Source: Alphaproteobacteria bacterium
GTDB lineage: Bacteria; Pseudomonadota; Alphaproteobacteria; UBA828
DNA: 64,000 bases
Direction: 5' to 3'
Assembly (NCBI GenBank): GCA_963667785.2
Contig: CAXXMU010000001.1
Coordinates: 320,001 to 384,000, forward strand
Under the pieces are notes generated by a model, which was not told the DNA's origin, did not search any database, and saw only the letters and a program-made list of their open reading frames with translations. Of the stretch, positions 13,490 to 40,040 are shown piece after piece; position 1 is the stretch's first letter, and the number at the start of each line of letters is the position of its first letter. The position numbers and the translations under genes were made by a program.

Positions 13490-13497
13490 CGTGAGCC

Positions 13498-25497: not shown

Positions 25498-26790
25498 CTA
25501 CGGCTCGGGATAGGCGTCGAAGGCGATGCCGATGCGCTCGCCCGGCCCCTCGAAGGGCAGGGTGCCGTGGAAGACGTACGACGGGAAGAGCAGCGCCGTG
25601 CCGGCACGCGGCGGGTGGCTGACGCAGCGGACCTCGCTGCCCTCGGGCAGGGCGTGGTCGGGCCGGCCGAACTCGAGCCAGCCGCTCCGGTCGCTGTCGT
25701 CGTTGGCGTCGCCGCTGCCGTCTCCGCCGACCTGTGCCGGCACCGCCACGTAGCAGACCCCGCTCAGCCACGCGCCCTCGTGGATGTGCGGCGGGTGCCG
25801 GCCGCCTTCCTTCAGGATCGAGGCGATGAGCGTGAGCCGGTAGCGGCGGGGGATGCGGGCGAGGAAGGGGCTCTCCGGCTCGGGCCAGAGCGTCTCCCGC
25901 CAGGCGTCGATGGCGGCACGCAGCGCGCGCTCCAGGTCGCGGACGGGCGCGCTCGGCGCGGCCAGCAGGTCCTGGGTCACCGCCCCGTTGCGGGTGACGC
26001 GGTTGGGCGGCTCCCAGACGAGGGAGGGCGCCTCGCGCACCGCCCGCGCCAGCGCCTCGTTGAAGGCCGCGCCGTCGCCATAGCCGGGCGGCGGGGCGAG
26101 CGAGACCCGGGTGACGAAGCGCTCGAAGTCGTAGAGGCGCAGCCCTGCCTCCCGATCGCCGCCGACCTGCTCGGCGAGCGCCCGGGTCGCCAGCGCGTTC
26201 TGGCAGAAGGGATCGAGGGCGAGCGCCGCGGCGCAGGCCTCCAGCGCACCCGCCACCGCGCCGAGGGCTAGGCGGGTCCGCGCCAGCCGGTAATGCGCCT
26301 GCAGGGCGCCTGCATCGAGGGCGATGGCGCGCAGATAGGCCGCCTCCGCCTCCGCCCAGGCGCCCGCCGCGCTCATGGCGTTGCCGAGATTGGTGTGGGC
26401 GTTGGCGTAGTCGGGCCGGAGCGAGACGGCGCGTTCCAGCGCGCCGCGGGCCTCGGCGGTGCGCCCGGTCTCGAGCAGGAGGAGGCCCAGGCTGTTGTGC
26501 GCCTCGGCGTATTCTGGCGCCGCCTCGGTCGCCTGGCGCAGCAGCACCGCCGCGTCCTCGAAGCGGCTGCAGCGATAGCGGGCGACGCCGGCATAGTGCA
26601 GCACGCTCGGATCGCCCGCGCCCTCGCCCGCCAGCAGCCGGGAGAGGAGCTGGTCCGCCCGCTGCGGCCTTCCCTCCTGCATGTGCCGCACCGCGCGGGC
26701 GAGCACGTCGGCCCGCCCGTCCTCCCGGCCCTTGCGCTTCGCGGTGCCGGCGCTGGCGGCCGAGTGCCGTCGTCTCGCTTGCCGGTTCAT
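25498..26790 (-). CDS. TPR-repeat protein fused to a putative 2OG-Fe(II) oxygenase domain
   Basis: TPRs (PEYAEAHNSLG, PDYANAHTNLG); HPPHIH..AWLSGVCYV, LFPSYVFHGT, RIGIAFD. Confidence 0.88.
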   Translation of the reverse strand: MNRQARRRHSAASAGTAKRKGREDGRADVLARAVRHMQEGRPQRADQLLSRLLAGEGAGDPSVLHYAGVARYRCSRFEDAAVLLRQATEAAPEYAEAHNSLGLLLLETGRTAEARGALERAVSLRPDYANAHTNLGNAMSAAGAWAEAEAAYLRAIALDAGALQAHYRLARTRLALGAVAGALEACAAALALDPFCQNALATRALAEQVGGDREAGLRLYDFERFVTRVSLAPPPGYGDGAAFNEALARAVREAPSLVWEPPNRVTRNGAVTQDLLAAPSAPVRDLERALRAAIDAWRETLWPEPESPFLARIPRRYRLTLIASILKEGGRHPPHIHEGAWLSGVCYVAVPAQVGGDGSGDANDDSDRSGWLEFGRPDHALPEGSEVRCVSHPPRAGTALLFPSYVFHGTLPFEGPGERIGIAFDAYPEP

Positions 26791-26896
26791 CCTGCCCGCC
26801 GCCGTCCCGTCCGGGCGACTGCGCGCCCCTCCGTCCGGCGCGGCGTCGCGGCCGCTGCGCCGGCCCCTGGGTCCTGCCCGTTTCGCCCGGCGGCGC

Positions 26897-27028
26897 TCAG
26901 CGGGCCGTCAGGCCCACGTTGATGAGCGGCGTTTCCAGGGCGGAGCCGAGAATGATCATCAGGGCCAGGAAGACCCAGAACACGTTGTCGGCGCAGAGCC
27001 GGAGGATGCGCTTCATCTGTGGGTTCAT
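26897..27028 (-). CDS. Putative 43-aa single-TM small protein
   Basis: MNPQMKRILRLCADNVFWVFLALMIILGSALETPLINVGLTAR; RBS AGGGGAG; composition unlike the GC-shadow ORFs. Confidence 0.6.
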   Translation of the reverse strand: MNPQMKRILRLCADNVFWVFLALMIILGSALETPLINVGLTAR

Positions 27029-27148
27029 CGCCGCCGCTCCCCTGTCGCCGCCGGTGCCGGCAGGAGCCATGATTCCAAGTGCAGGGGCGGAACGCAACCG
27101 CCCGTCGCGATACTCCCGGGCAGGCCCAACCTAACAAATGACCGACAG

Positions 27149-27177
27149 TTGACACCGCTGCCGCGCGCGGGGAATAT
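27149..27177 (+). promoter_or_regulatory. Putative sigma70 promoter of the amide ABC/DMFase operon
   Basis: TTGACA-N17-GAATAT about 105 nt upstream of the binding-protein ATG. Confidence 0.55.
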
Positions 27178-27282
27178 CGCCGGCACGAATGCATAGGTTT
27201 GCCTTATCGTCGTGACGGCGGCGGCTTCCGCGTCGCCCGTCGCGGGTGAGGGCATCGGGAGAAACCAACGGAGGTCACTAAC

Positions 27283-28626
27283 ATGCGTGTCAACCGGCGT
27301 ACCATCCTCAAGGGCGCTCTCGCGGGGACGGCCGGCATCGCCGCCACGTTCCCCCACATCTACGTCAAGGACTTCGGCCAGGCCTGGGGCGCGAAGCCCT
27401 GGATCTACAACGACGAGCCGATCAAGGTCGGCATGCTGTGGTCGCAGACCGGCAACCTCTCGGTCGTCGAGAACGATTCCACCCAGGTCTCGCTCTACGC
27501 GGTCGACGAGATCAACGCGGCGGGCGGCATCGCCGGCAAGATGGTCGAGCCGGTGGTGGTCGACGCCAAGTCCGACATCAAGGTCTACTCGGAGAAGATC
27601 ACGCAGCTCATTCTCCGCGACCGCGTGGTCTCGGTGCACGGCAGCTACACCTCGGCGAGCCGGCGTGCGGTCATGCCGATCGTGATGAAGTGGGACCACC
27701 TCTACTACTACCCGACCTGCTACGAGGGCCGGGAGTGCATGCAGAACATCATCAACACCGGGCCGCTGGCCAACCAGCATTCCTTCGACCTGGTGCCGTT
27801 CATGGTGCAGAATTTCGGCCCCAAGACCTACCTGGTCGGCTCCAACTACATCTGGCCGAAAGAGTCCAACAAGAACGTCAAGGTCTGGCTGGAGCGGGCC
27901 GGCGGCGAGGTGCTGGGCGAGGACTACATCCCCCTCGGCGGTTCCGAGTTCGCGCCGGTCTTCAACAAGATCCGCCAGCAGCAGCCGGACTGGATCATGT
28001 CCACTGTCGTGGGCGATTCCGACATCGCCCTGCACCGGCAGTTCCTGCAGGAAGGCTTCAAGTCCGACAAGACGCCGATCGCATCGCTTACCACCGGTGA
28101 GATCGAGACCCGCGCCATGGGCAACGAGGCCGGCGCCGGTCACTTCCTGTCCGCGCCCTACTTCCAGACGCTGCAGAACCCGACCAACGAGAAGTTCGTT
28201 GAGGGCTATCTCTCGAGCCAGTATGGCGGCGGCGGCGTCACCCACTACAACATGGAAGAGACCTACCTCGGCATCTACGTGTGGAAGAAGGGTGTCGAGC
28301 GCGCTCTCGAGGAGACCGGCGGCGACTGGGAAGCCATCACGCCGCGCATGATCCGCGACGTCAGCGGCAACTGGCGCGACCAGGGCCCGGTGGGGCTCAC
28401 CGACGAGGAGAGCCCGGAGGGCAAGGTCTGGATCGATCCGGACAACTTCAACATCTGGCTCAAGCCCAAGATCGGCCAGTGCGGTGCGGACGGGCAGTTC
28501 ACCATCGTGCGCCAGGCCGACGACCACGTCGGGCCGGATCCCTTCGCGATCTATCCCGAGCGCGGCGTCTGCAAGGCCGACGGGCTGCACCGGCCCGACG
28601 GCTCGATCCAGAAGGACGTTCTGTAA
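27283..28626 (+). CDS. Amide/urea ABC substrate-binding protein (UrtA/FmdD/AmiC-like), Tat-exported
   Basis: NRRTILK Tat signal; INAAGGIAG, GSYTSASR, YPTCYEG.E, NYIWPKESN, SAPYFQTL. Confidence 0.92.
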   Translation: MRVNRRTILKGALAGTAGIAATFPHIYVKDFGQAWGAKPWIYNDEPIKVGMLWSQTGNLSVVENDSTQVSLYAVDEINAAGGIAGKMVEPVVVDAKSDIKVYSEKITQLILRDRVVSVHGSYTSASRRAVMPIVMKWDHLYYYPTCYEGRECMQNIINTGPLANQHSFDLVPFMVQNFGPKTYLVGSNYIWPKESNKNVKVWLERAGGEVLGEDYIPLGGSEFAPVFNKIRQQQPDWIMSTVVGDSDIALHRQFLQEGFKSDKTPIASLTTGEIETRAMGNEAGAGHFLSAPYFQTLQNPTNEKFVEGYLSSQYGGGGVTHYNMEETYLGIYVWKKGVERALEETGGDWEAITPRMIRDVSGNWRDQGPVGLTDEESPEGKVWIDPDNFNIWLKPKIGQCGADGQFTIVRQADDHVGPDPFAIYPERGVCKADGLHRPDGSIQKDVL

Positions 28627-28650
28627 GGGGCCTGTTCGATCTGGTAGTGT

Positions 28651-28678
28651 CGGGGCGGAGGGCACATCCTCCGCCCCG
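28651..28678 (+). other. Intercistronic GC hairpin (mRNA stabiliser or attenuator) after the binding-protein gene
   Basis: CGGGGCGGAGG-GCACAT-CCTCCGCCCCG, 11-bp stem, no U-tract. Confidence 0.55.
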
Positions 28679-28778
28679 CCGCTCCCCGGCGGGGGCGGCG
28701 GCCGGCTGACCTTTCGGGCACGCACCCGCGGGGCAGCGCCGGCAGGGCCGTGAGAGGGAGAGAGGCGGGACTCAGTTC

Positions 28779-29681
28779 ATGAGCGTCCACGATTTCTGGA
28801 CACCCTTCGCCGCTGAACCGTTCATTAATGCGCTGATCATCGGCCTCAGCCTGGCCAGCATCTGGCTGGTCGCGGCGCTGGGGCTCACCATCATCTACGG
28901 CACCATGGGCGTCATCAACATGGCCCATGGCGAGTTCATCATGCTGGGCGCCTACTTCACGTGGATCCTGCAGTATTTCGGCGGGTTCCCCTGGCTGCTC
29001 TGCCTGCCCGTCTCCTTCATCCTCGTCGGCTTCATCGGCTGGCTGGTCGAACGCGGGCTCATACGACACTTGTACGACCGACCATTGGACACGCTCCTCG
29101 CGACATGGGGCGTCTCCTTGGTCTTCATCCAGAGCATCCGGCTGATCTTCGGCGGCGAGCCGCAATACGTCGAGGTGCCCGACTGGCTGACCAGCGTGAT
29201 GACGATCGACTTCGTCCACGTGCCGTGGCTGAGGATCTTCATCTTCTTCGCGGCGCTGGCGCTGGTGGCCATGACCTGGGCGATCCTGTTCAAGACCAAT
29301 ATCGGCATCCAGGTTCGCGCGGTGATGCAGAACCCGCAGATGGCGGCGTCCTTCGGCATCAATTCGAGCCGGGTCTACGGCCTCACCTTCGCCTACGGGG
29401 CGGGCCTCGCGGGCATCTCCGGCTCCATGTTCGCGGGCCTCAAGACGATCTTTCCGGACATGGGGCTGGGCTACGTGGTCGAGGCCTTCCTCGTGGTGGT
29501 GACGGGCGGCGGCGAGCTCTTCGGCAGCCTGGCGACCGCCGGCATCATGGGCGAGATGTTCTCGATCTTCTCCTACTTCACCAACGACACGTTCGCCCGC
29601 TTCGTGCTGTTCATCCTGATCGTGATCTTCCTCAGGTTCCGGCCGCAGGGCATCTTCGCGCCCAGCATGGCGCGGCGCTAG
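28779..29681 (+). CDS. urtB: Urea/amide ABC permease, UrtB-like
   Basis: ALGLTIIYGTMGVINMAHGEFIMLGAY, LYDRPLDTLLATWG, RAVMQNPQMA, RFRPQG. Confidence 0.88.
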   Translation: MSVHDFWTPFAAEPFINALIIGLSLASIWLVAALGLTIIYGTMGVINMAHGEFIMLGAYFTWILQYFGGFPWLLCLPVSFILVGFIGWLVERGLIRHLYDRPLDTLLATWGVSLVFIQSIRLIFGGEPQYVEVPDWLTSVMTIDFVHVPWLRIFIFFAALALVAMTWAILFKTNIGIQVRAVMQNPQMAASFGINSSRVYGLTFAYGAGLAGISGSMFAGLKTIFPDMGLGYVVEAFLVVVTGGGELFGSLATAGIMGEMFSIFSYFTNDTFARFVLFILIVIFLRFRPQGIFAPSMARR

Positions 29682-29697
29682 GAGCGGGGCGCACGTC

Positions 29698-30840
29698 ATG
29701 CTGTTGGAACGGTTGAGGCTGGAGCCGACGGCGCAGCGCCAGAACCTCTACCACGACAAGCGCGCGCAGTGGGCGATGTACGTCGTCGCCTTCGGCGCGC
29801 TCGCCACCATCCCGCTGTTCATGGGCGACGACCCCTTCGCCCTCAACCAGTTCGCGCGCTACGGCGTCTTCGGCATGCTGGCGCTCTCGGTCAGCCTGGT
29901 GTGGGGCTTCGGCGGCATCCTCAGCCTCGGCCAGGGGATCGCCTTCGGCATGGCGGCCTACGGCATGGGCGCCACCATGCAGATGCAGTACCAGGATCCG
30001 GAGTACGACCCGATCCCGAGCTTCATGCTGACCAACGAGCTCGAGAAGCTGCCGACGGTGTGGGAGCCGTTCTGGCATACCGAGGTCGGGCTGATCCTGG
30101 CGCTCGGAATCCCGACGCTCTTCTTCGTCATCTTCGGCATCCTGATGTTCCAGGCGCGGCTTGCCGGTGCGTTCGTCGCCATCATGACGCTCGCCATGCT
30201 CGGCGCCTGGTACAACATGGCCTACGACATGCAGCCGTTTACGGCGGGCTTCAACGGCATCTCGCCGCCCAACTCGTTCCAGGCGTTCGGCGTCGACGTC
30301 GACCCCTACAGCAGCATGATCTACTGGGTGGCGCTCGGCGTGCTCGCCGCACTCACCCTCGGAACCAAGGCGCTGCTCGCCAGCAAGTTCGGCACCATCA
30401 TCCAGGCGATACGAGACGACCCCGAACGAGCGCGCTTCCTCGGCTACAACGTCGCCTTCTACCAGGTGACGGTGTTCACGATCTCCGGCCTGATCGCGGC
30501 GATCGCGGGCATCGTCTGGGTGATGATCGTCCAGTACGTCTCGCCGACCTCGCTGGAGATCTTCTTCAGCATCACCATGGTGATCTGGGCGGCCGTCGGC
30601 GGCAGGCTCTCGCTCTTCGGCGCGATCTTCGGCGCGATCTTCATCAACACGATCCAGAGCTACGTGGGCGACGAGTTCCAGGCCGCCTGGTTCGTGATCC
30701 TCGGCACGATCTTCATCGTCGTCGTGCGATTCCTGCCGAAGGGGATCGCCGGCCTGTTCGAGATGATCGTCGGCCTCGTCCCCTATCGCGGCCGCGCGCC
30801 GGTCCAGCCGTCGCTCGGCCCGCGGCGGGCGTCGGACTAG
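29698..30840 (+). CDS. urtC: Urea/amide ABC permease, UrtC-like
   Basis: LVWGFGGILSLGQG, PSFM...LP..WEPF insert, AIRDDPERARFLGY, VIWAAVGGR. Confidence 0.88.
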   Translation: MLLERLRLEPTAQRQNLYHDKRAQWAMYVVAFGALATIPLFMGDDPFALNQFARYGVFGMLALSVSLVWGFGGILSLGQGIAFGMAAYGMGATMQMQYQDPEYDPIPSFMLTNELEKLPTVWEPFWHTEVGLILALGIPTLFFVIFGILMFQARLAGAFVAIMTLAMLGAWYNMAYDMQPFTAGFNGISPPNSFQAFGVDVDPYSSMIYWVALGVLAALTLGTKALLASKFGTIIQAIRDDPERARFLGYNVAFYQVTVFTISGLIAAIAGIVWVMIVQYVSPTSLEIFFSITMVIWAAVGGRLSLFGAIFGAIFINTIQSYVGDEFQAAWFVILGTIFIVVVRFLPKGIAGLFEMIVGLVPYRGRAPVQPSLGPRRASD

Positions 30841-30846
30841 GAGGGC

Positions 30847-31608
30847 GTGGAGGTGGCTGCCATCCTGGAGGTCACGGACCTGACCAAGGCCTATGACGAG
30901 TACAAGGTCGTCGACGGCTTCAGCTTCCAGGTCGAGGAGGGCGAGCTGCGCTGCCTGCTCGGGCCCAACGGTGCCGGAAAGACCACGACGATGGACCTGA
31001 TCACCGGTCGCCAGAAGGTGACGGGTGGCAAGATCATGTTCCAGGGCCGCGACATCACGGGCCTGACGGAGCACCGGATCGTCAAGCACGGGATCGGCCG
31101 CAAGTTCCAGGTGCCGGCGGTGTTCAGGGACCTCACCGTGCGCGAGAACCTGCAGGTCGCCAACACGCAAAACACCAACCCCTTCATCAACATGATCACC
31201 TACCGCCAGCGGGCGGGGCGCGAGAGGCTCGGCGAGATCGCCGAGCTGGTCGGGCTGGAGGAGCGGCTGGACGAGCTCGGCGGCAACCTGAGCCACGGCG
31301 AGACCCAGTGGCTCGAGATCGGCATGGTGCTCACTCAGGATCCGAGGCTCCTGCTCATGGACGAGCCCACCGCCGGCATGACCGAGCAGGAGACCCACCG
31401 CACCTCCGAGATCTTCAACCGCCTCAAGGGAACGCACACGCTGGTCGTGGTCGAGCACGACATGGCCTTCGTGCGCGAGATCGCCGACATCATCACGCTC
31501 ATGCACCTGGGCAAGACCCTGGCGGAGGGCCCCATGCACGAGGTGGAAAACGATCCGAAGGTGCGCGAGGTCTATCTCGGCGCCGAGGGCATCAGCGATG
31601 CTGCTTGA
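30847..31608 (+). CDS. urtD: Urea/amide ABC ATPase, UrtD-like
   Basis: GPNGAGKTT, GIGRKFQ.P, LSHGETQWLEIGM, DEPTAGM, VREVYLG. Confidence 0.92.
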   Translation: MEVAAILEVTDLTKAYDEYKVVDGFSFQVEEGELRCLLGPNGAGKTTTMDLITGRQKVTGGKIMFQGRDITGLTEHRIVKHGIGRKFQVPAVFRDLTVRENLQVANTQNTNPFINMITYRQRAGRERLGEIAELVGLEERLDELGGNLSHGETQWLEIGMVLTQDPRLLLMDEPTAGMTEQETHRTSEIFNRLKGTHTLVVVEHDMAFVREIADIITLMHLGKTLAEGPMHEVENDPKVREVYLGAEGISDAA

Positions 31609-32296
31609 GCTCGAAGGCGTCACTTCCTACTACGGGAAGACGCCGATCCTGCAGAACGTGAGCCTGGGCGTGCAGCACGGCCACTGCATGGCGGTGCTCG
31701 GGCGGAACGGAGTCGGCAAGACCACGCTGGTGCGCACCATCATGGGGCTGACCACGCGCATGACCGGCACGCTCAGGATCGCCGGCGAGGACGCGAGCAA
31801 CATGCCGACCCACCAGCGCTCCGAGATCGGCATGGGCTACATCCCGCAGGGACGCGGCATCCTGCCCAAGTTCTCGGTGCGCGAGAACATCCTGCTCGGG
31901 ACCTTCGCCCGCAACGACAAGCGGCGCAAGATCCCCGACATGTGCCTCGACCTCTTTCCCTATCTCGCCGAGAACCTGGACAAGCGGGCGGGGCAGCTCT
32001 CGGGCGGTCAGCAGCAGCAGCTCGCGATCTCGCGGGCGCTCGCGACCGACCCGAAGATCCTGCTGCTGGACGAGCCGACGGAGGGTATCCAGCCCAACAT
32101 CGTGCAGGAGCTCGAAGCCACGATCATGCGGCTCAACACCGAGGTCGGGCTCACGCTCGTGCTCACCGAGCAGCACATCAAGGTCGCGCGCGAGCTCTCG
32201 CACGAGTTCGTCATCATGGACAACGGTCTGGTCGTGGAGGGTGGCCCCATCGACCAGTTGACCGACGAGGTCGTCGACAAGTACCTGACGATCTAG
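31598..32296 (+). CDS. urtE: Urea/amide ABC ATPase, UrtE-like
   Basis: GRNGVGKTT, YIPQGR, LSGGQQQQLAI.RAL, DEPTEGIQPNI. Confidence 0.92.
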   Translation: MLLELEGVTSYYGKTPILQNVSLGVQHGHCMAVLGRNGVGKTTLVRTIMGLTTRMTGTLRIAGEDASNMPTHQRSEIGMGYIPQGRGILPKFSVRENILLGTFARNDKRRKIPDMCLDLFPYLAENLDKRAGQLSGGQQQQLAISRALATDPKILLLDEPTEGIQPNIVQELEATIMRLNTEVGLTLVLTEQHIKVARELSHEFVIMDNGLVVEGGPIDQLTDEVVDKYLTI

Positions 32297-32339
32297 GCAT
32301 TCGAGGGCCGAGGGTGAACACGCGAGGGGGAGACCCAGA

Positions 32340-32780
32340 ATGATCCGCATCCCGCCGAAAGGTAGTCCCGAACGGGACCGTCTCATCGAAGAGCACCAGG
32401 CGTGCATCGAGTCCATGAAGGGCGTCGCCGGATGCTCGATCCTGCGTTGCGCGACGCAGGGCGACACCACCGAGATCAGCGGCGGCATCCACGAGGACTT
32501 CCAGCTCAACCGCGTGCTGCTGCGGATGCGGGCACAGCCGGCGAAGGGCAAGCTCGTGGTGGTCTGCACCAAGATCGAGAAGGAATGGCGCATCGCCCGC
32601 TGTTCCGGCATCCGCGGCGTGCCGCCGGAGTTCGTCTCCGACAAGGTGTACGACAACGAGCAGGACCCGCAGCACGACATCTTCCTGATGCGGCTGGACG
32701 AGTTCCCGGAGACCGACGGTTTCCCCGAGCACTTCCACCAGGGCTGGAAGCGTCGCGACGACAACTGGGCCGCATCCTAG
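32340..32780 (+). CDS. dmfA1: N,N-dimethylformamidase small (alpha) subunit-like protein
   Basis: LIEEH..LNRVL..MR.QP..GK..WRIA..RG.PPE..H.IFL.RL pattern; lies immediately before the large subunit. Confidence 0.75.
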   Translation: MIRIPPKGSPERDRLIEEHQACIESMKGVAGCSILRCATQGDTTEISGGIHEDFQLNRVLLRMRAQPAKGKLVVVCTKIEKEWRIARCSGIRGVPPEFVSDKVYDNEQDPQHDIFLMRLDEFPETDGFPEHFHQGWKRRDDNWAAS

Positions 32781-32868
32781 GACGCGCCCCGACGCGAGGA
32801 CCCCACGCGGTAACCGAACACGGCGCGCGAGCGGCCGATCAAGCCCGCGCGATAAGGAGACACAGTCG

Positions 32869-35274
32869 ATGGCTTGGATGAGACTGACGGGATATGCGGA
32901 CAAGTTCGGCGTCCATCCCGGCGATACGATCCGCTTCTACGTGAATTGCGACGGGCCGAAGAAGTACGACGCCCAGCTCGTGAAGATGATCAACGGCGAC
33001 ACCAACCCGCGCGGGCCGGGCCTGATCGAGCGCAGGCGGCGGGCGGCGCTCAACGGCACCTACAAGGGCCGCCGTCAGGTCATCCACAGCGGCTCCTACG
33101 GCTTCGTGGAGGACTGCTCCCAGCTCCGCGCGCAGAGCTTCACGCTCCAGTGCTGGGTGTGGCCGACGACGCCGAAGACTCATCCGAAGTACTGGAAGCA
33201 CGGCGCCCAGGGCCTGGTCACCAAGTGGCACAGGAACAAGGGCTACGGCCTCTTCATCAACGAGGACGGCTGCGCCGAGCTCCGCATCAACGGGAAGAAG
33301 GTCACGACCGGCGCGCCGCTCCGCGACCATGCCTGGCACTTCCTCGCCGCGACCTACGACGCCGAGTCCGGGCAGGCGATCCTCTATCACGAGCCGCAGG
33401 TGGTCTACGCCCTCGACCCGGTGATCAGACCCGCGAAGGAGAAGATCGCAGGGCCGGTCCGGCACGACGCGAGCCCCGCGGTCATCGCAGGCTATACCGG
33501 CGCGCACAGCGACGATCCCACCGCGCGGTCGTCGGTGCCGGCGGGCATCGTCATCAACGGCCACTACAACGGGAAGATCGACGGCCCGCGCATCTGCAAC
33601 CGCGCGCTCAGCCGCGAAGAGATCGAGACCATGAAGCTCGGCGCCCAGCGCGGCATGACCGAGCGGCGCAACTCCGGCCCCACCGGCGCGCTCTCCGAGA
33701 CGATCGTCGCCGCCTGGGACTTCTCCGACGGCATCGACACCATCGTCGGCAAGGACCACGGGCCCTATCTGCTGGATGCGCAGATCGTCAACTGCCCGAC
33801 CCGGGCCATGACCGGCCACAACCACTCGGGCGACAACTTCGACTGGAAGCACGCGCAGAGCGAGTACGGCGCCATCCACTTCCACGACGACGACGTGGAC
33901 GATGCGCGCTGGGAAGTCGACTTCGAGTGGACCGTCCCGGCGAACTACGAGAGCGATTCCTACTGCGTGAAGCTCACCACGGACGAAGGCGACGAGGACT
34001 ACATCCCCTTCTTCGTGGTGCCGCGCCCCGGCGAGGAGCAGGCCAAGATCGCGGTGATGATGCCGACGATCAGCTACATGGCCTACGCCAACGAGCATCT
34101 CGCCAACAACGCCGGCGGGGCGGAGCTGCTGGTCTACCGCGTGCCGATCATGCAGCACCAGAACATGTTCCTGGCCGAGCACCGCGAGTATGGCGGCTCG
34201 ATCTACGACACCCATACCGACGGCAGCGGCCTCTGCCTCTCGTCCCGGCTCAGGCCGATCCTCAGCATCCGGCCGCAGTACGACCACTTCCTGATGCAGG
34301 CGCCGTGGCAGTATCCCGCCGACCTGCACCTGATCTACTGGCTCAATCAGCTTGGCTACAAGTACGACGTCATCACCGACGAGGACGTGAACTATGACGG
34401 CCTCGCGCGGCTGGAGAACTACAACGTCGTGATCACGGGCTCGCATCCGGAGCACAACTCCGGCCCGCAGCTCGACGCGATCCACGACTACACCCAGCGC
34501 GGCGGCCGCTTCATGTACATGGGCGCGGACGGCTTCTACTGGATCCACTCCTACCATCCGGCCTACGACCATCTCGGCCGCGGCATCATCACCGAGATGC
34601 GCCGATGCGAATCCGGCATCAGGACCTGGCGTGCCGATCCCGGCGAGTACTACCACCAGTCGACCGGCGAGCTCGGCGGCATGTGGCGCTATCGTGGGCG
34701 CTACCTGCACTCGGTCGCCGGCACCGGCATGTCGTCGGAAGGCTTCGACATCTCCAGCTACTACTCGCGCACGCCGGAGAGCAACGATCCGCGCGTCTCG
34801 TGGGCCTACGAGGGCATCGGCTACGACGAGAAGATCGGCAACTTCGGCCTGGTCGGCGGCGGTGCCGCCGGCACCGAGCTCGACATCGTCGACACCCTGC
34901 TCGGCTCGCCGCCGCACACGCTGATCACCGCGACCTCGGCGGGCCGCCACACCGAGGGCTACCTGCTGGTGATGGAGGACTTCGGCTTCAACCAGCAGGG
35001 CCTCGACGGCACCCAGCACCCGCGCGTGCGCTCGGACATCGCCTATCACGAGACGCCCAACGGCGGCGCCTGCTTCGCCTTCAGCTCGATCGCCTTCTGC
35101 GGCTCGCTGCCGTGGAACAACGGCGATCCCGAGAAGAACAACATCTCGCGGCTGGTGAAGAACGTGCTCGACCGCTTCTCGCAGGACGGCCCGCTGCCGC
35201 CGCCGCCGCGCAGTGCCATCCAGCATCGCGGTCGCGCCGATTACGATCCGCCGCTCAACAAGAAGCGGAAATAG
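32869..35274 (+). CDS. dmfA2: N,N-dimethylformamidase large (beta) subunit-like protein with LamG-like domain
   Basis: GD.NP.GPG, YGAIHFHDDD..DARW, SYMAYAN, SIYDTH.DGSG, ADLHL, GSHPE, GGAAG.ELD, FSSIAFCG; 801 aa. Confidence 0.92.
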   Translation: MAWMRLTGYADKFGVHPGDTIRFYVNCDGPKKYDAQLVKMINGDTNPRGPGLIERRRRAALNGTYKGRRQVIHSGSYGFVEDCSQLRAQSFTLQCWVWPTTPKTHPKYWKHGAQGLVTKWHRNKGYGLFINEDGCAELRINGKKVTTGAPLRDHAWHFLAATYDAESGQAILYHEPQVVYALDPVIRPAKEKIAGPVRHDASPAVIAGYTGAHSDDPTARSSVPAGIVINGHYNGKIDGPRICNRALSREEIETMKLGAQRGMTERRNSGPTGALSETIVAAWDFSDGIDTIVGKDHGPYLLDAQIVNCPTRAMTGHNHSGDNFDWKHAQSEYGAIHFHDDDVDDARWEVDFEWTVPANYESDSYCVKLTTDEGDEDYIPFFVVPRPGEEQAKIAVMMPTISYMAYANEHLANNAGGAELLVYRVPIMQHQNMFLAEHREYGGSIYDTHTDGSGLCLSSRLRPILSIRPQYDHFLMQAPWQYPADLHLIYWLNQLGYKYDVITDEDVNYDGLARLENYNVVITGSHPEHNSGPQLDAIHDYTQRGGRFMYMGADGFYWIHSYHPAYDHLGRGIITEMRRCESGIRTWRADPGEYYHQSTGELGGMWRYRGRYLHSVAGTGMSSEGFDISSYYSRTPESNDPRVSWAYEGIGYDEKIGNFGLVGGGAAGTELDIVDTLLGSPPHTLITATSAGRHTEGYLLVMEDFGFNQQGLDGTQHPRVRSDIAYHETPNGGACFAFSSIAFCGSLPWNNGDPEKNNISRLVKNVLDRFSQDGPLPPPPRSAIQHRGRADYDPPLNKKRK

Positions 35275-35294
35275 CGGCTCGCTTCGGGCGCGGA

Positions 35295-35319
35295 CGGGGC
35301 GGGTGGCGCACCCGCCCCG
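35295..35319 (+). other. Intercistronic GC hairpin after the large-subunit gene
   Basis: CGGGGCGGGTG-GCG-CACCCGCCCCG; same outer 8 bp as the 28651 hairpin. Confidence 0.5.
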
Positions 35320-35346
35320 GCGCGGCGCGGCCGAGGGTCTGGCCCG

Positions 35347-36468
35347 ATGACGATGCGGCCCGATCTCGACTACATGGACGAGGGCGTCGATCTCCAGGAT
35401 CCCGCCCTCTACAAGCCGTCGCGCGGACCCTTCGGCAGGGCCCGCATCCTCACGCCCATCGCCTATCGCTCCAAGGTCTTCGCCGACCTTGAGGACGAGA
35501 AGATCTGGACGCGGAGCTGGATCTGCATCGGCTCCCATCGCGACATTCCGAACGTCGGCGACCTCCTGCCCTACACCGTCGGCAATCACGGCGTTCACGT
35601 GCAGCGCGGCGGCGACGGGCTGATCGGGCGCTACAATCTCGCCCAGCACGGCGGCTGTCGCTTCGTGCCGGCGCAATGCCAGACCGGCTCCAAGACCAGG
35701 TGCTCGTTCACCTCGTGCGGCTACAGCCGCGATCGCGGGGTGATCGCGGCCGACGAGCTCGGCGACGACACGCCGACCATGCGTCAGTATCTCGGCTTTC
35801 GGCCCGAGCGCCTGCTGCCGGTCACGGTGGAAAGCGAGGGGCCGCTCCTCTTCGTCAATCTCGACCCGGAGGCCGCCCCGCTCGCGGCCCGGCTGGGCGA
35901 CATCGCCGAAACTCTCGCCCTCGAAGACGCGGAGCCCCGGGACGACGCCGAGAGCTTCCGGGCGGAGTATGGCGCCAACTGGAAGCTCCTCGGCCGCGCG
36001 CTGCTGCGTTCCCTCGCGCCCGAGGCCAGGCCTGCGAAGAAGGGAAATGCCGACGCGATTGTTCTCGACGCGGCCTCCGATTTTTCCGGCGCGCCCGCGA
36101 CCGTCCACTGGCTCCTGCCTAACCTGATCCTGCTGCGGGGCGAGGGCCATCTGTTGAGCATCGTGCTGCAGCCCACCGCGCTCGAGGAGACGCTGGCCCG
36201 GGTCAGGCTCGCCGCCGCAGGGCCCGTCGATTCCGGCACGCTCGCGGCCTTGCGCGCCGCCCTCGACGAGGCCGACGCCACGGCGGCGGCGCTGCAGGAG
36301 GAGCTGGGGCGCTTCGGCACGCCGTCGCGGCCCCGCACCAGCCTGAAGAAGCTCCCCCTCGAGCGGGACCGCGCCGCCCTTCTGTTGCAGGCCTACGTGA
36401 TCGGGCGCGTGCTGAAGCGTCACGAGCTCCACTGGTCGGGCCCGCTCTACGCGGCCGCCGCGCGCTGA
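35347..36468 (+). CDS. Rieske oxygenase alpha-subunit homologue with degenerate metal sites
   Basis: AY.S..F..LE.EKIWTRSWICIG..DIPNVGD, L.PV.VE..GPLLFVNLDP, ANWKL, LPNL; Rieske box reads NLAQHGG..CSFTSCGY. Confidence 0.8.
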   Translation: MTMRPDLDYMDEGVDLQDPALYKPSRGPFGRARILTPIAYRSKVFADLEDEKIWTRSWICIGSHRDIPNVGDLLPYTVGNHGVHVQRGGDGLIGRYNLAQHGGCRFVPAQCQTGSKTRCSFTSCGYSRDRGVIAADELGDDTPTMRQYLGFRPERLLPVTVESEGPLLFVNLDPEAAPLAARLGDIAETLALEDAEPRDDAESFRAEYGANWKLLGRALLRSLAPEARPAKKGNADAIVLDAASDFSGAPATVHWLLPNLILLRGEGHLLSIVLQPTALEETLARVRLAAAGPVDSGTLAALRAALDEADATAAALQEELGRFGTPSRPRTSLKKLPLERDRAALLLQAYVIGRVLKRHELHWSGPLYAAAAR

Positions 36469-36773
36469 TGGTCTACAGCGTTCAGCAGATCAAGTACGAG
36501 ATCCTCGCCTACATCAGGGAGTTCGGCGGGGACTTCGGCGACTACTACGTGGGAATAGCGGCCGACCCTAAGAAGACCCTTCTCGACGTCCACAAGGTGG
36601 ACGAGGCCGCCGATCCCTGGCTCTACAAGCAGGCGCTCACCTTCTACGCCGCGCAGACGGTCCAGGACTACTTCCTGCGCCGGCTCAAGGCCGACGGCGA
36701 GCCGGTGCGCGACGGCGACGAGGATATGGACTGCGTCTATGTCTACAAGAAGAGCGAGCGGACCGTCCCGTAG
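36468..36773 (+). CDS. Hypothetical protein (101 aa)
   Basis: TGATG coupling to the upstream gene; normal globular composition and codon usage. Confidence 0.8.
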   Translation: MVYSVQQIKYEILAYIREFGGDFGDYYVGIAADPKKTLLDVHKVDEAADPWLYKQALTFYAAQTVQDYFLRRLKADGEPVRDGDEDMDCVYVYKKSERTVP

Positions 36774-36807
36774 CGGGCGGCGCCGGGCGAAGGCCGGCGA
36801 GGCCGGC

Positions 36808-37500
36808 GTGAGGGCGGCGCGCGCGGAGCGCGAGGCCGAAGCGATCGAGGAGGGGCGCCGCGCCTACATGGCCCGCGACTTCGAGCGGGCGCGGGCTCTC
36901 TGGCTGCCGCTCGCCGAGGCGGGCAACGCCGAGGCCCAGGCCTGGGTCGGCTCGCTCCATGCCAACGGGGACGGCGTCGAGGCCGACGCGGCGGCGGCCT
37001 TCGCGTGGTATCTCAAGTCGGCCGAGGGCCGGAACGTGCTGGCCCAGAGCAACGTCGGCGCGATGTACGCCATGGGCAGCGGCGTCGCCCAGGACATGGC
37101 GGAGGCGGTACGCTGGCTGCGCCGCGCGGCCCGCGGCGGCGACGCCAACGCCCGCTTCAACCTCGGCGTGCTCTACGGCCAGGGCAACGGCGTGCCCCGG
37201 AACAACGCCCGCGCCGCCGAGTGGTACCGCAAGGCGGCGGAAACGGGGCACTACCAGTCCCAGGCCCGTCTCGGCCACATGTACCTGGCGGGCGAGGGCG
37301 TGAAGAGGGACCGCGTGCAGGCCTTCCTCTGGCTCTCGCTCGCCGCCCGGCACGGCATCGGCAGCGCGCTCACCGCCCTCGAAGCGGTGGTCAAGGAGAT
37401 GTCCTCGGACGAGAAGGCCGCGGGCATGCGTCTCGTCGCCCAGTGGCGCGGCAGGGCGGACGGCGAGGCCGACGTGCTCATCGATCCGGTGCCCGTCTGA
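36808..37500 (+). CDS. Sel1-like repeat protein
   Basis: LAEAGNAEAQ..G..GDGV, AQSNVG.MY..GSGVAQD, ARFNLGVLY.QGNGV, SQARLG.MY..GEGV.RD; start uncertain. Confidence 0.88.
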   Translation: MRAARAEREAEAIEEGRRAYMARDFERARALWLPLAEAGNAEAQAWVGSLHANGDGVEADAAAAFAWYLKSAEGRNVLAQSNVGAMYAMGSGVAQDMAEAVRWLRRAARGGDANARFNLGVLYGQGNGVPRNNARAAEWYRKAAETGHYQSQARLGHMYLAGEGVKRDRVQAFLWLSLAARHGIGSALTALEAVVKEMSSDEKAAGMRLVAQWRGRADGEADVLIDPVPV

Positions 37501-37520
37501 CGGGACGGCGGCCGGTATCC

Positions 37521-38018
37521 TCAGCCGGCCGGCGCCGGCGCGGCGCAGGCGAAGCGGTCGATCACCCCGGTCTTGTCGTTCACCTCGATCTCGAAGGTCC
37601 GCTCGGCGAGCTCGCCCCAGAGGCCCGATTCCCCGGTCGGGCAGGCATTGTGCGGCCCGATCTCGCCGGGCCGTGCCGCCTCGCCGTGGCGGCGGGAGCG
37701 GATGCCGGGGGAGAAGTGGAGCGTCACCTCCGCCGCGCCCGTCTCGCCGCGGACGATGTCGCCGGTCTCCCAGCCGCCCGGCAGGTCGTGGCTCCGGTAA
37801 TAGCGCTTGAGCCGGCGCAGGGTGTCCGCGGGATCGGCTGCCTCTTCGGCGCCGGTCTCCGTCGTCTGCCCCTCGGTGCCTGCGCCGCCGCGGCGGAGCT
37901 GCTGCCCGGTCTCGTAGACGATCACGAACAGCAGAAGAATCCCGACGATGATGCCGTAGCGGAGCCACCGCCGCTTCGATGGCGCCTTGGCCGCGCCGCG
38001 TCCGCCGCGTCGTCCCAC
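37521..38018 (-). CDS. Hypothetical protein with an N-terminal membrane anchor
   Basis: Basic N-terminus, TM segment YGIIVGILLLFVIVY, then a soluble domain with two Cys. Confidence 0.65.
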   Translation of the reverse strand: MGRRGGRGAAKAPSKRRWLRYGIIVGILLLFVIVYETGQQLRRGGAGTEGQTTETGAEEAADPADTLRRLKRYYRSHDLPGGWETGDIVRGETGAAEVTLHFSPGIRSRRHGEAARPGEIGPHNACPTGESGLWGELAERTFEIEVNDKTGVIDRFACAAPAPAG

Positions 38019-38094
38019 GATGTTTCCGTCGCTTTCGAGTAAGATCGCCGTCTCTCGGGCGCAGGATAGCGGTCGCGGTCAGGGGAGTGAAACG

Positions 38095-38370
38095 ATGCCG
38101 ATTCCGCGGAACATTCAGGAGGAGCTCGACAAGAGGGACGAGCTGATCCTGGCTCTGGAACTGCTGGTTGTCGATCAGGCCTGCCGCCTGCTCGCTGCGG
38201 AGGCGGTGCTGCGCGAGCTCGTCCCGGCCAAGCGGAAGCCCTCGCAGGAAAAGATCGAGGCCCACATCGCTGAAGCCGCCGAGCGCTTCCGTCAGCGCTT
38301 CGAGGGCGAGAGCGTGGCGGGCTTCACCGACCGCGCGAAGCGCATCGCGGCCGATCTGGTCGGGCGATAG
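38095..38370 (+). CDS. Hypothetical helical protein (91 aa)
   Basis: RBS GGGGAG before ATG 38095; MPIPRNIQEELDKRDELILALELLVV... Confidence 0.65.
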   Translation: MPIPRNIQEELDKRDELILALELLVVDQACRLLAAEAVLRELVPAKRKPSQEKIEAHIAEAAERFRQRFEGESVAGFTDRAKRIAADLVGR

Positions 38371-38403
38371 CGCGCTCCGCCCGCTCGCCCGCGCCGCCCT
38401 GCC

Positions 38404-39156
38404 TCAGGGCGCGCGGCGCGCCGCGATCAGAAACTCGGTGTTGCCGTCGCGTCCCGTGATCGGGCTTTCGACGAGGCCCGTGACCGGCCAGGCTGCTGCC
38501 GCGAGCCAGTCGCGGATCGTGGCGCAGACCTCTTCGTGAACGGACGCGTCGCGAACGATGCCGCCCTTGCCCACGCGGCCCCGGCCCGCCTCGAACTGCG
38601 GCTTGATGAGGGCGACGAGGCGAGCGCCCGGAGCGGCCAGCGCGAGCGCGGCCGGCAGCACCGTGCGCAGGCCGATGAAGCTCGCGTCGCAGACGATGAG
38701 GTCGACCGGCTCCGGCACGTGGGCGGCGGTGAGGTGGCGGGCATTGGTCCGCTCCAGCACCGTGACGCGCGAATCGTTCCGCAGGCTGTCCGCGAGCTGG
38801 CCGTAGCCGACATCGACCGCGTAGACCCGCCGCGCCCCGCGCGTACACAGCACGTCGGTGAAGCCGCCGGTCGACGCGCCGATATCGAGCGCCGTGAGCC
38901 CTTGTGGATCGATGCGGAAGCAGGTGAGCGCGTGATCCAGCTTCACCCCGCCGCGCGAGACCCAGGGGTGCGCCGCGCCCCGCACCGTGAGCGCTAGGTC
39001 GGACTCGACGCGGAGGCCGGGCTTGTCGAGGCGCCGCTCGCCCGAGAACACCCGGCCTGCCAGCAGAAGCGCCTGCGCCTTGGTCCTGGTCTCGGCCAGG
39101 CCGCGCGCCACCATCAGGGTGTCGAGCCGCTCCTTGACCTGCGTCTGGCGGCTCAG
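38404..39156 (-). CDS. tlyA: TlyA family rRNA 2'-O-methyltransferase
   Basis: WVSRGGVKL, LDIGASTGGFTD, VDVGYGQL, DASFI, LIKPQFE, SPITG.DGN.EF; conserved KERLD lies upstream of the first ATG (39114), so CTG at 39156 is proposed as the start. Confidence 0.93.
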   Translation of the reverse strand: MSRQTQVKERLDTLMVARGLAETRTKAQALLLAGRVFSGERRLDKPGLRVESDLALTVRGAAHPWVSRGGVKLDHALTCFRIDPQGLTALDIGASTGGFTDVLCTRGARRVYAVDVGYGQLADSLRNDSRVTVLERTNARHLTAAHVPEPVDLIVCDASFIGLRTVLPAALALAAPGARLVALIKPQFEAGRGRVGKGGIVRDASVHEEVCATIRDWLAAAAWPVTGLVESPITGRDGNTEFLIAARRAP

Positions 39157-40040
39157 TGGCGCCGTTCCACGATGTAGCGGGCGACGGCGCGGAGCGGCTC
39201 GGCCCTGTCATCGAAGCGGCCGAGCGCGGCGATGGCGTCGTCCGCCAGAGCGCCCGCCCGCCGGCGTGCCTCCTCGGCACCGAGCAGGCCGACGAAGGTC
39301 GCCTTGCCGGCGGCGGCATCCTTGCCCACGGCCTTGCCGAGATCCGCCTCCGAGCCCTCGTGATCGAGCAGGTCGTCGGCGATCTGGAACGCGAGGCCGA
39401 TGCGGGCGGCGTAGTCGCGAAGCGCCGCGCGGGCCGCACCGTCCTCGCGCGCGAGAATGGCGCCGGCCTCGCAGGAGAAGCCGAACAGCGCCCCGGTCTT
39501 GAGCTGCTGCAGGCGGACGATCTCGTCGAGGCCGAGCTCGCGGGTCTCCGCCGCCAGGTCGATCGCCTGGCCGCCGGCCATCCCGTCCGCGCCGGCGGCG
39601 CGTGCGAGCGCGCAGGCGAGGGCCGCGCGCACGCCAGCGTCCGGATGGCCCGAGGGCGCCGTGACCGCCTCGAAGGCGAGCGTCAGCAGCGAATCGCCGA
39701 CCAGGATCGCCGTCGCCTCGTCGAAGGCGATGTGGCAGGTGGGCTTGCCGCGCCTGAGGTCGTCGTCGTCCATTGCCGGCAGGTCGTCGTGGACGAGGGA
39801 GTAGGTGTGCACCATCTCGATGGCGGCGGCGGTGTTGACCGACCAGGCGCGCGGCACGTCGAAGAGGTCGGCGCCCGAGAGGACCAGGAAGGGGCGCAGC
39901 CGCTTGCCGCCGGCAAAGAGCGAATAGCGCATCGCCTCGTAGAGGCGCCCGTTCTCGCCGTTGGTCAGGGGAACCAGTGAATCGAGCGCCGTGTCCACGG
40001 CCTCCGCGGCCTCGCGGAGCGCTTCTTCCAGCGTCGTCAC
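39153..40040 (-). CDS. ispA: Farnesyl diphosphate synthase / geranyltranstransferase
   Basis: GGKRLRP, HTYSLVHDDLPAMDDDDLRRGKPT, GQAID, KTGAL, FQIADD, GKD..AGKATF. Confidence 0.95.
   Translation of the reverse strand: MTTLEEALREAAEAVDTALDSLVPLTNGENGRLYEAMRYSLFAGGKRLRPFLVLSGADLFDVPRAWSVNTAAAIEMVHTYSLVHDDLPAMDDDDLRRGKPTCHIAFDEATAILVGDSLLTLAFEAVTAPSGHPDAGVRAALACALARAAGADGMAGGQAIDLAAETRELGLDEIVRLQQLKTGALFGFSCEAGAILAREDGAARAALRDYAARIGLAFQIADDLLDHEGSEADLGKAVGKDAAAGKATFVGLLGAEEARRRAGALADDAIAALGRFDDRAEPLRAVARYIVERRH

Follow-up and report, generated by a model that had tools for sequence, protein, structure and literature searches.

Positions 27,283 to 37,500 of the alphaproteobacterial DNA analyzed here (contig CAXXMU010000001.1, positions 320,001 to 384,000; this whole stretch of 64,000 nucleotides is the window) are filled by ten tightly packed, co-oriented genes on the + strand, g1 to g10 (Table 1). 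They encode a Urt-type importer (g1–g5), the small and large subunits of an amidase of the dimethylformamidase (DMFase) family (g6 and g7), and three accessory proteins: a homolog of Rieske oxygenases (g8), a protein of 101 amino acids (aa) from an uncharacterized family (g9), and a Sel1-repeat protein (g10). A preliminary description, made from the sequence, had listed the same ten genes with the same families and boundaries, and all of this was confirmed. The cassette is real and strongly conserved. In kind it is known, as an amide uptake-and-hydrolysis operon; what is new is a distinct clade of the enzyme and a set of three accessory proteins. We see the chances as evenly balanced that the operon scavenges a small uncharged amide or ureido compound, likely for nitrogen, with the accessory proteins acting on the enzyme.

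The DMFase family is reported to be present in 4.5% of complete genomes, according to a preprint on DMFase genomics (10.1101/2021.03.18.435917). These proteins are routinely annotated as solvent-degrading, yet dimethylformamide (DMF) is a synthetic compound, and no natural substrates are known. The cassette marks out a sharply bounded subgroup of the family, with its own importer, a diagnostic aspartate in place of Asn547, and three co-inherited proteins that do not accompany proven DMFases. This makes the vague question of the natural role of DMFase homologs testable, as cultured carriers exist. We searched the literature for DMFase, dmfA1/dmfA2, PF20254/K03418, and UrtA with formamide or acetamide; outside of supplements, which this search did not cover, we found no description of the cassette, of the accessory genes, or of the clade's substrate. 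The word "Rieske" occurs 0 times in the preprint.

Conservation of the cassette

We scanned one genome per species for the cassette, using an alignment of 26 homologs of g9 as the seed. The scan matched 83 stretches, of which 62 were confirmed, and these represent 61 distinct loci. (Two peptide motifs of g9 were used in the scan, so their invariance among the loci is partly by construction.) We then used tblastn with the ten window proteins to determine the gene content of each locus. The full set of ten genes is present in synteny at 41 of the 61 loci. Most of the other loci (18 of 20) are truncated, by the end of a contig or by our 10-kb limit on the flanks, where the missing genes would lie. 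The remaining two are true variants: the importer is missing from L050, and both the importer and the Sel1 gene are missing from L060 (Paracoccus sulfuroxidans). Across the 61 loci, g7 was found in 58, g8 in 57, g10 in 55, and g6 in 53.

The accessory genes occur in three arrangements: g8-g9-g10 (28 loci), g8-g10-g9 (22 loci), or with g9 divergent (4 loci). Their linkage has thus survived rearrangement. Also, all six of the genes that we tested are under purifying selection, with ratios of nonsynonymous to synonymous substitution rates (dN/dS) of 0.06–0.41 in comparisons to three relatives (Table 1). The synteny and the purifying selection together imply that the block is more than chance. The preliminary description had suggested checking if the accessory genes co-occur with the amidase genes in other genomes. 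They do, and the importer, the two amidase subunits, and the three trailing genes form one conserved unit.

Judging by the titles of the records, the carriers are Alpha-, Beta-, and Gammaproteobacteria, and most are aquatic metagenome-assembled genomes. Cultured carriers include Rhodopseudomonas telluris, Bosea sp. 117, Ancylobacter moscoviensis, Jiella sp., Rhodospirillaceae N.6G, and Paracoccus. The large subunit is 71–97% identical across the three classes. The gene tree is at odds with taxonomy, with gammaproteobacterial loci nesting among alphaproteobacterial ones, which suggests that the cassette moves as a unit.

Two loci are binned as other phyla: L063 as Acidobacteria and L028 as Mycobacterium. 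Their large subunits are near-identical to those of L061 (Roseobacter) and L029 (Thiotrichales), with tip branches of 0.007–0.028. These two loci are probably mis-binned, or possibly they reflect very recent transfer.

Beyond the ten genes, no neighbor that would name a pathway is conserved in the flanks of the scan loci. Hydantoinase A/B genes (4–5 loci) and glutamate-synthase-like genes (3–6 loci) are patchy. Nor did the scanned flanks contain a conserved ferredoxin or reductase partner, product-pathway genes, or genes of the methylamine or dimethylamine pathways.

The amidase and its importer

The large subunit (g7) contains DMFA2_C and a LamG-like N-terminal domain, and its match to the structure of DMFase (PDB 6lvb) has E = 1.6e-154. 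For the small subunit (g6), a profile comparison with hhalign, against three small subunits (from two proven DMFase loci and from a homologous locus in Aminobacter), gave a probability of 96.3% and E = 1.5e-9, while the match of g6 to chain 6lvb_B had E = 0.055. With a DMFA2_C large subunit and a homologous small subunit, the enzyme belongs to the DMFase family.

To map the active site, we carried over the residues from the paper on DMFase's structure, using a printed alignment and a MAFFT alignment. Y406, Y446, H526, E528, E670, and F707 of g7 correspond to Y399, Y440, H519, E521, E657, and F693 of DMFase. The equivalents of the first five are conserved in all 59 sequences that we aligned (54 from cassettes and five outgroups), so the Tyr2-Glu iron ligands and the catalytic histidine and glutamate are kept. 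The equivalent of F693 is present in 54/54 cassette sequences and in 3/5 outgroups, with tyrosine in the other two.

Another functional residue is not kept. DMFase's Asn547 is an oxyanion- or water-binding residue, and the N547A mutant is reported to be inactive (PMC7686228). This position is aspartate in 54/54 cassette sequences (D554 in g7) and asparagine in the 5/5 other family members. Besides this substitution, 97 more positions (98 in all) are invariant within the clade and hold a residue that none of the five outgroups has. For instance, the residue directly after the glutamate ligand is histidine in the clade and tyrosine in the outgroups. The small subunit has an insert of ~15 residues, and H19, C22, C76, and H112 of g6 are kept in 54/54 orthologs and C37 in 53/54. 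In a tree of the 59 large subunits from IQ-TREE, a branch of length 4.06 with 100/100 support separates the 54 cassette sequences from the outgroups; the tree is unrooted and the outgroup branches are long, so we claim the split alone. Finally, g7 is just 38.6% identical to the proven DMFases, from pAMI2 and from Methylobacterium DM1. By these sequence comparisons, the cassette's enzyme is a distinct orthologous group and not an ortholog of DMFase. The preliminary description's "DMFase-like operon" holds for the family and for the iron ligands, but not for the orthologous group or for Asn547. Furthermore, matches in the PDB to g7's family include N-acetyl-(R)-beta-phenylalanine acylase, which shows that the substrates of the family extend beyond formamides.

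The gene neighborhoods differ as well. The proven DMFases (from Paracoccus sp. DMF, PDB 6LVB; pAMI2; and pLVM1 of Methylobacterium DM1) share with the cassette the small and large subunits, both domains of the large subunit, the Tyr-Tyr-Glu iron ligands, the catalytic histidine and glutamate, and the phenylalanine from the neighboring subunit. In contrast, the cassette's enzyme has the aspartate, the cysteine-bearing insert in its small subunit, and a clade of its own. The DMFase loci of pAMI2 and DM1 consist only of genes for a LuxR protein, the small subunit, and the large subunit, and they are on mobile plasmids; they have neither an importer nor g8–g10. The homologous locus in Aminobacter (41% identity) has the same LuxR-small-large layout and lacks g8–g10. 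A homologous locus in Agrobacterium has a Liv-type importer but no small subunit and no g8–g10, and one in the haloarchaeon Halalkalicoccus has neither a Liv-type importer nor a small subunit, and also lacks g8–g10.

We also compared the large subunit to 72,556 plasmids. There were 78 records with homologs, and the best hit was to pAMI5, a chromid of Paracoccus aminophilus (71.3% identity). pAMI5 is also the only one of the 72,556 records, and hence of those 78, that contains g9. The preliminary description had cast the accessory genes as an extension of the DMFase operon. As a general extension this fails: they are missing at the pAMI2, DM1, and Aminobacter loci, and g9 is in just 1/78 of the plasmid records.

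The pAMI5 locus (JCM7686_pAMI5p063-064) encodes an enzyme of the cassette's clade, with 71% identity for both subunits. The enzyme genes are followed by homologs of g8 (40% identity; annotated as "biphenyl 2,3-dioxygenase") and g9 (35%; "hypothetical"), which overlap by 4 nucleotides (nt), as confirmed by tblastn. Unlike the cassette, it has a channel of the AmiS/UreI family in place of the ATP-binding cassette (ABC) importer, and it has no Sel1 gene. A homolog of the binding protein (50%) is encoded in the divergent direction, together with genes for a sensor kinase and a response regulator. In P. aminophilus, loss of pAMI2 abolishes the use of DMF (PMC4543880). As for pAMI5, the same paper names just the enzyme's two genes and does not connect them to the use of DMF.

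The cassette's importer has the gene order of UrtABCDE and of Urt-like transporters of short-chain amides: a binding protein, two permeases, and two ATPases. UrtB, UrtC, UrtD, and UrtE all score above the cut-offs of the NCBIfam equivalog models, by small margins (Table 1). The binding protein (g1) does not: it scores 311.2 bits against NCBIfam's UrtA, which is below the cut-off of 492.75, and it has an insert relative to the structures of UrtA and AmiC. Also, the partner enzyme is neither urease nor formamidase nor aliphatic amidase. Among solved chains, g1 is closest to 8tg1, whose ligand is not named (E = 8e-73). Next come three UrtA proteins that bind urea (E = 1e-59 to 3e-54) and AmiC, a sensor of acetamide (E = 5e-50). 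Thus, the nearest solved relatives with a named ligand bind urea or acetamide. Urt-like five-gene transporters have been documented beside genes for formamidase or amidase (PMC3098086).

A natural small amide is a more likely substrate than the solvent DMF, as the preliminary description had argued from other evidence. First, the clade member on pAMI5 is not linked to growth on DMF. Second, the window is ordinary core chromosome (it encodes glnA, argG, rpoA, ybeY, miaB, and lnt), and the cassette lies near glnA. Third, no methylamine-pathway genes are conserved beside the cassette. The substrate may matter for nitrogen cycling in the sea. DMFase-annotated proteins of Alpha- and Gammaproteobacteria are reported from ocean metaproteomes, together with ammonifying enzymes (PMC9477243), and a "dimethylformamidase" is reported from a SAR11 cluster (PMC10308929); both identifications are by annotation, not by clade.

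The accessory proteins and their possible role

The Rieske-like protein (g8) has no match in Pfam and weak matches in NCBIfam to Rieske oxygenases, including GbcA (E = 1.6e-11). Among 8,000 candidates that we scored, 492 are relatives of g8 at E ≤ 1e-3. A profile built from 25 of its relatives matched CntA in the PDB (E = 1.7e-16). The AlphaFold2 model of g8, with a predicted local distance difference test (pLDDT) score of 76.8, matched CntA (6y8j; E = 3.7e-13 with Foldseek), and its Foldseek matches to CntA, terephthalate dioxygenase (TPADO), and stachydrine demethylase are at E = 1e-13 to 1e-11. Like CntA, GbcA, and stachydrine demethylase, g8 has the two-domain fold, with a Rieske domain and a helix-grip catalytic domain (template-modeling scores (TM) of about 0.56–0.62), and the NWK and FPN landmarks. 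Unlike these enzymes, it lacks the catalytic iron ligands, a reductase partner, and a Pfam match, and a loop with histidine and four cysteines (His/Cys4) replaces the Rieske motif.

To quantify these differences, we compared 58 of the 59 orthologs of g8 (one fragment of 212 aa was dropped). In the alignment of g8 to CntA, the histidine pair that should follow NWK is missing, and D173 is the sole acidic residue or histidine that is conserved in the C-terminal half, so the 2-His-1-carboxylate site is not there. Within the Rieske motif (Cys-x-His...Cys-x-x-His), the first cysteine is replaced by alanine in 53/58 orthologs and the second histidine by threonine in 55/58. On the other hand, H81, H84, H101, C104, C111, C119, and C124 are kept in 58/58, and the string QHGGCR...C...C....CG is identical in 58/58. 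Within this string, H101 and C119 are retained from the Rieske motif, and C104, C111, and C124 are additional invariant cysteines. The H-x-G-C spacing presumably recalls the loop of bc1-type Rieske proteins. Although g8 is the fastest-evolving of the genes tested, the invariance of the loop points to a metal site that was remodeled and is functional, not to decay. The preliminary description's "degenerate Rieske homologue" was therefore right about the canonical sites, which are altered or lost, but not about decay. Going by the residues that are kept and lost, g8 cannot be an oxygenase of a known kind: with the oxygenase's iron site gone, it would be unable to hydroxylate.

The 101-aa protein (g9) matches nothing in Pfam, and neither Pfam nor NCBIfam identified a DNA-binding domain in it. 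Of 147 candidates, 113 are related to it at E ≤ 1e-3, and nearly all of these are exactly 101 aa long. In a search of 1.84 billion representative sequences with a hidden Markov model of g9, there were 830 hits at E ≤ 1e-3, 228 at E ≤ 1e-10, and 6 at E ≤ 1e-30. With 830 cluster representatives, g9 is one subfamily of a large family of ~100-aa proteins. The AlphaFold2 model of g9 is confident (pLDDT of 94.1) and has the topology alpha-beta-alpha-beta-alpha-beta. Searches with this model gave nothing significant in the PDB (best E = 0.52, TM ≤ 0.41) and nothing at E ≤ 1e-3 in BFVD, and a profile of the family had no match among solved structures (best E = 0.37).

The one lead for g9's ancestry is the GIY-YIG family. 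This family has sub-threshold matches in 4/38 distant members of g9's family (16.7–21.3 bits, versus a cut-off of 22.6), it is found at ranks 2–3 in BFVD (E of about 0.1), and it is on 14–23% of the members of the atlas clusters that g9 matched at 0.95. The family alignment of g9 has no invariant counterpart of the catalytic arginine or glutamate of GIY-YIG. We treat a remote relationship as a lead only, and we do not expect nuclease or DNA-binding activity. We also considered two 278-aa proteins (P0381 and P0382) that resemble fusions of g9 to Sel1, but these are out-of-frame read-throughs caused by frameshift errors in the source assemblies. Among the longer proteins that we searched, there were no true fusions of g9 to a known domain.

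The third accessory protein (g10) has four Sel1 repeats (E = 3.7e-37 in Pfam). It is below the cut-offs for all of the named Sel1 members of NCBIfam (MerG, AlgK, MotX, and ExoR). No hydrophobic signal segment is apparent by eye in the N-termini of the listed g10 orthologs, except for an aberrant 354-aa extraction from L044. So, g10 is most likely cytoplasmic, unlike MerG, AlgK, MotX, and ExoR. As for a role in defense, PADLOC had no match for g6, g8, g9, or g10.

We propose that g1 would bind the amide in the periplasm, that the Urt-type transporter would import it, and that g6/g7 would hydrolyze it with metal-activated water, as in DMFase. The products would be ammonia or a simple amine, along with a simple acid (formate, CO2, or acetate), and no dedicated downstream genes would be needed. 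Family membership and gene context make this uptake-and-hydrolysis part of the proposal quite likely.

More tentatively, we suggest that g8–g10 act on the enzyme and not on the substrate, by delivering iron, by maintaining its redox state, or by assembling or stabilizing it; we are less than confident of this part. The His/Cys4 loop of g8 probably would hold a metal or an Fe-S center and supply iron to the buried Tyr2-Glu site, or else keep its redox state; g9 could be a small partner or chaperone of a subunit; and g10 could be a scaffold. Several observations point this way. The three proteins are confined to this clade of the enzyme; g8 kept a metal-type motif without the capacity for oxygenation; no redox partner or product pathway is linked to the cassette; and two distant lineages (those of the window and of pAMI5) both have g8 and g9 translationally coupled and placed after the enzyme genes. 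Also, Sel1 proteins are scaffolds: Sel1 repeats are adaptors between proteins. There are functional analogies in the "activator" proteins of nitrile hydratase and the accessory proteins of urease, which are likewise encoded by small genes directly downstream of the subunits of a metalloenzyme and are co-inherited with them. Unlike these systems, g8–g10 include no GTPase, and we found no relationship of sequence or fold to either.

If g8–g10 are a maturation or redox module, then g8 would be a new pseudo-enzyme recruited from the Rieske oxygenases, and the role of g9 would be the first to be assigned in its family of ~100-aa proteins, which comprises hundreds of subfamilies. The most ambitious version of this idea, which we consider a long shot, is that oligotrophic aquatic Proteobacteria use the cassette for nickel-free and ATP-free mineralization of urea, a ureide, or an amide, with a dedicated three-protein module for maturation of the metallocenter. 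The Fe-S-binding pseudo-oxygenase, the 101-aa protein with a new fold, and the cytoplasmic Sel1 scaffold would then be the sole means of building the buried Tyr2-Glu Fe(III) site or keeping it active. Both the mineralization route, so far unrecognized, and this type of maturation system would be new.

Several points weigh against our proposal. Recombinant DMFase is reported to be active without such helpers (PMC7686228), so a maturation module is not a requirement of the family. Because we started the genome scan from g9, its result is that loci with g9 have the cassette, and it does not establish that helpers accompany all enzymes of the clade; the converse direction, from enzyme to helpers, rests on 1/1 clade member among the plasmids. 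The loop of g8 (residues 100–127) has pLDDT < 50 in the AlphaFold2 model, so its geometry cannot be argued from the model, and metal binding is a prediction from the conserved residues. In a comparison of distance matrices across the 31 complete loci, g9 correlates best with the small subunit (partial r = 0.61) and weakly with g8 (0.21), although such mirror-tree correlations are weak evidence, as pairs of loci are not independent. The betaproteobacterial loci transcribe g9 divergently, and in L053, L056, and L057 the divergent g9 is directly followed by a gene with XRE-family helix-turn-helix and cupin domains; this arrangement fits a regulatory role at least as well. Finally, the ligand of the binding protein is deduced from g1's relatives only.

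The arrangement in Betaproteobacteria bears on the idea that g8–g10 are a regulatory module, with g9 and/or the Sel1 protein sensing the substrate or product or sequestering a regulator, and with g8 as a sensor of a ligand or of redox state. We think that this is unlikely. It would account for the lack of a classical transcription factor beside the cassette at most loci, including the window, and for the patchiness of the regulators that do occur: among the 61 loci, there are XRE-cupin genes at 5, a hybrid kinase at 7, and a LuxR-type response regulator at 2 (plus pAMI5). Some Sel1 proteins are regulators, and ExoR is among g10's hits in NCBIfam (E = 5e-10), but far below the cut-off. Against a regulatory module, g9 is acidic (its isoelectric point (pI) is 4.75, and the median is 5.2 across 61 orthologs), which argues against DNA binding, as does the lack of a DNA-binding domain. 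The coupling of g8 and g9 to the enzyme genes suggests that they are produced in stoichiometry with the enzyme. And g9 and g10 are present whatever type of regulator is nearby. We note that the XRE-cupin gene is beside the cassette in L050 and L048 as well as in L053, L056, and L057.

It is improbable, in our judgment, that the substrate is urea itself, so that the cassette would be an alternative to urease that requires neither nickel nor ATP. (This would be compatible with our proposal.) The permeases and ATPases pass the cut-offs for urea transporters, among solved binding proteins whose ligand is named, those nearest to g1 bind urea, and the channel in Paracoccus belongs to the AmiS/UreI family. 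The aspartate in place of Asn547 could suit a second NH2 group. Also, we found no urease domain in the 32 other open reading frames (ORFs) of the 64-kb window or in the ORFs of the scanned flanks, but this survey covers the window and flanks and not the rest of each carrier's genome. On the other side, g1 falls below the cut-off for UrtA and has its insert, and permeases of the Urt equivalogs also accompany formamidase or amidase genes (PMC3098086). We know of no member of the DMFase family that hydrolyzes urea.

A second, oxidative step by g8 with g9 and g10, such as N-demethylation before or after hydrolysis, seems very unlikely. The relatives of g8 named above (CntA, GbcA, and stachydrine demethylase) are Rieske monooxygenases that act on N-methyl or quaternary amines, and the products of DMFase are methylated amines (PMC7686228). 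But g8 has no 2-His-1-carboxylate site (D173 alone is conserved), 2/4 of the canonical Rieske ligands are replaced, and no reductase or ferredoxin gene is conserved nearby. Last, a genuine operon for the degradation of DMF with extra genes is hardly credible: both subunits are homologous to DMFase, the iron ligands are kept, and annotation pipelines assign the enzyme to the DMFase family, but it is in a separate clade with 38.6% identity to the DMFases of pAMI2 and DM1, the essential Asn547 is replaced in 54/54 sequences, the carriers are mostly from aquatic metagenomes, and there are no dimethylamine-pathway genes nearby.

Layout of the locus

Table 1. The ten genes of the cassette and the candidate expression signals around them. 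Positions are those of the window; dN/dS is relative to three relatives.
Feature	Positions	Strand	dN/dS	Description
Candidate sigma-70-type promoter	27149-27177	+		-35 TTGACA at 27149-27154, 17 nt spacer, -10-like GAATAT at 27172-27177
g1	27283-28626	+	0.08-0.12	447 aa; periplasmic substrate-binding protein, UrtA/AmiC family; twin-arginine-like N-terminus; Peripla_BP_5, E = 2.7e-108
g1-g2 spacer	28627-28778	+		152 nt; G+C-rich; two perfect hairpins
g2	28779-29681	+		UrtB-type permease; BPD_transp_2; NCBIfam UrtB, 320.3 bits (cut-off 250.3)
g3	29698-30840	+		UrtC-type permease; BPD_transp_2; NCBIfam UrtC, 313.2 bits (cut-off 296.2)
g4	30847-31608	+		UrtD-type ABC ATPase; NCBIfam UrtD, 320.1 bits (cut-off 304.1)
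g5	31598-32296	+		UrtE-type ABC ATPase; NCBIfam UrtE, 288.0 bits (cut-off 285.8)
g6	32340-32780	+	0.06-0.12	146 aa; amidase small subunit, homolog of DMFase small subunit; clade-specific Cys-containing insert
g7	32869-35274	+	0.07-0.10	801 aa; large catalytic subunit, mononuclear-iron amidohydrolase of the DMFase family, distinct clade; DMFA2_C, E = 7.7e-88; Laminin_G_3
g8	35347-36468	+	0.25-0.41	373 aa; homolog of Rieske-oxygenase alpha subunits; lacks 2-His-1-carboxylate site; invariant His/Cys4 loop
g9	36468-36773	+	0.12-0.17	101 aa; acidic protein of an uncharacterized family; start codon overlaps the g8 stop codon by one base
g10	36739-37500	+	0.18-0.24	Sel1-repeat protein, most likely cytoplasmic; 253 aa if the start is the ATG at 36739; start uncertain
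Terminator-like hairpin	37556-37572	+		T-rich tail; 56 nt 3' of g10; weak

Pfam and NCBIfam together name 7/10 of the ORFs, and g6, g8, and g9 have no Pfam family. The intergenic gaps are 6–152 nt. g4 and g5 overlap by 11 nt, and g8 and g9 overlap by one base (TGATG). If g10 starts at the ATG in Table 1, then it overlaps g9 by 35 nt; there is an alternative in-frame GTG at 36,808. The gene after the cassette (37,521–38,018) is on the opposite strand.

The TTGACA/GAATAT pair upstream of g1 is a candidate for the operon's promoter. The TTGAC of the candidate -35 box is invariant in 9/9 aligned upstream regions of close relatives. A scan with the sigma-70 consensus called no promoter and missed this candidate, whose -10 box matches at just 3/6 positions. 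A scan for terminators in the region found 3 sites, versus 4.1 expected by chance. The spacer between g1 and g2 folds no better than its composition predicts (minimum free energy of -86.7 kcal/mol, z = -0.99 versus shuffled sequences). Rfam identified nothing at E ≤ 1 across positions 24,000–40,000, and hence no riboswitch of the guanidine class or of other known classes.

The preliminary description had noted core-like codon usage, and the G+C content at third codon positions (GC3) bears this out: it is 0.94 for the 8 cassette genes of at least 150 aa, versus 0.92 ± 0.05 for 37 other ORFs in the window. The overall G+C content of the cassette region is lower (0.64–0.68 versus 0.70–0.76). Given the similar GC3, the difference lies in codon positions 1 and 2 and not in codon usage.

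Directly upstream of the operon, and divergent from it, is a small hydrophobic ORF of 43 aa (26,897–27,028, - strand). Five close relatives (L003, L005, L006, L007, and L020) have conserved the DNA of this ORF, and its product may be a small membrane protein. In four of these relatives (L003, L006, L007, and L020), two copies of a palindrome of ~12 nt (ACGAAATTCGT-like) are found immediately 5' of the conserved -35 box, at alignment columns of about 255–300. The window's upstream region does not contain these copies; they may serve as the operator of a regulator since lost in the lineage of the window. Farther upstream (25,498–26,790, - strand) is a gene for a 430-aa protein with tetratricopeptide repeats and a putative 2-oxoglutarate-Fe(II) oxygenase domain (PF13759).

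Two other loci in the window relate to amides or to transport. The gene for an amidase-signature enzyme (41,156–42,619, - strand; Pfam Amidase, E = 3.3e-91) follows the cassette at a distance of 3.7 kb and adjoins one for a GFO/IDH/MocA oxidoreductase; the amidase gene is not conserved beside the cassette in other loci. And a second importer with Peripla_BP_5 and BPD_transp_2 domains is at 10,105–14,082 (- strand), with its binding protein at 12,044–13,456, its permeases at 10,105–12,017, and an adjoining gene of the TetR family at 13,498–14,082.

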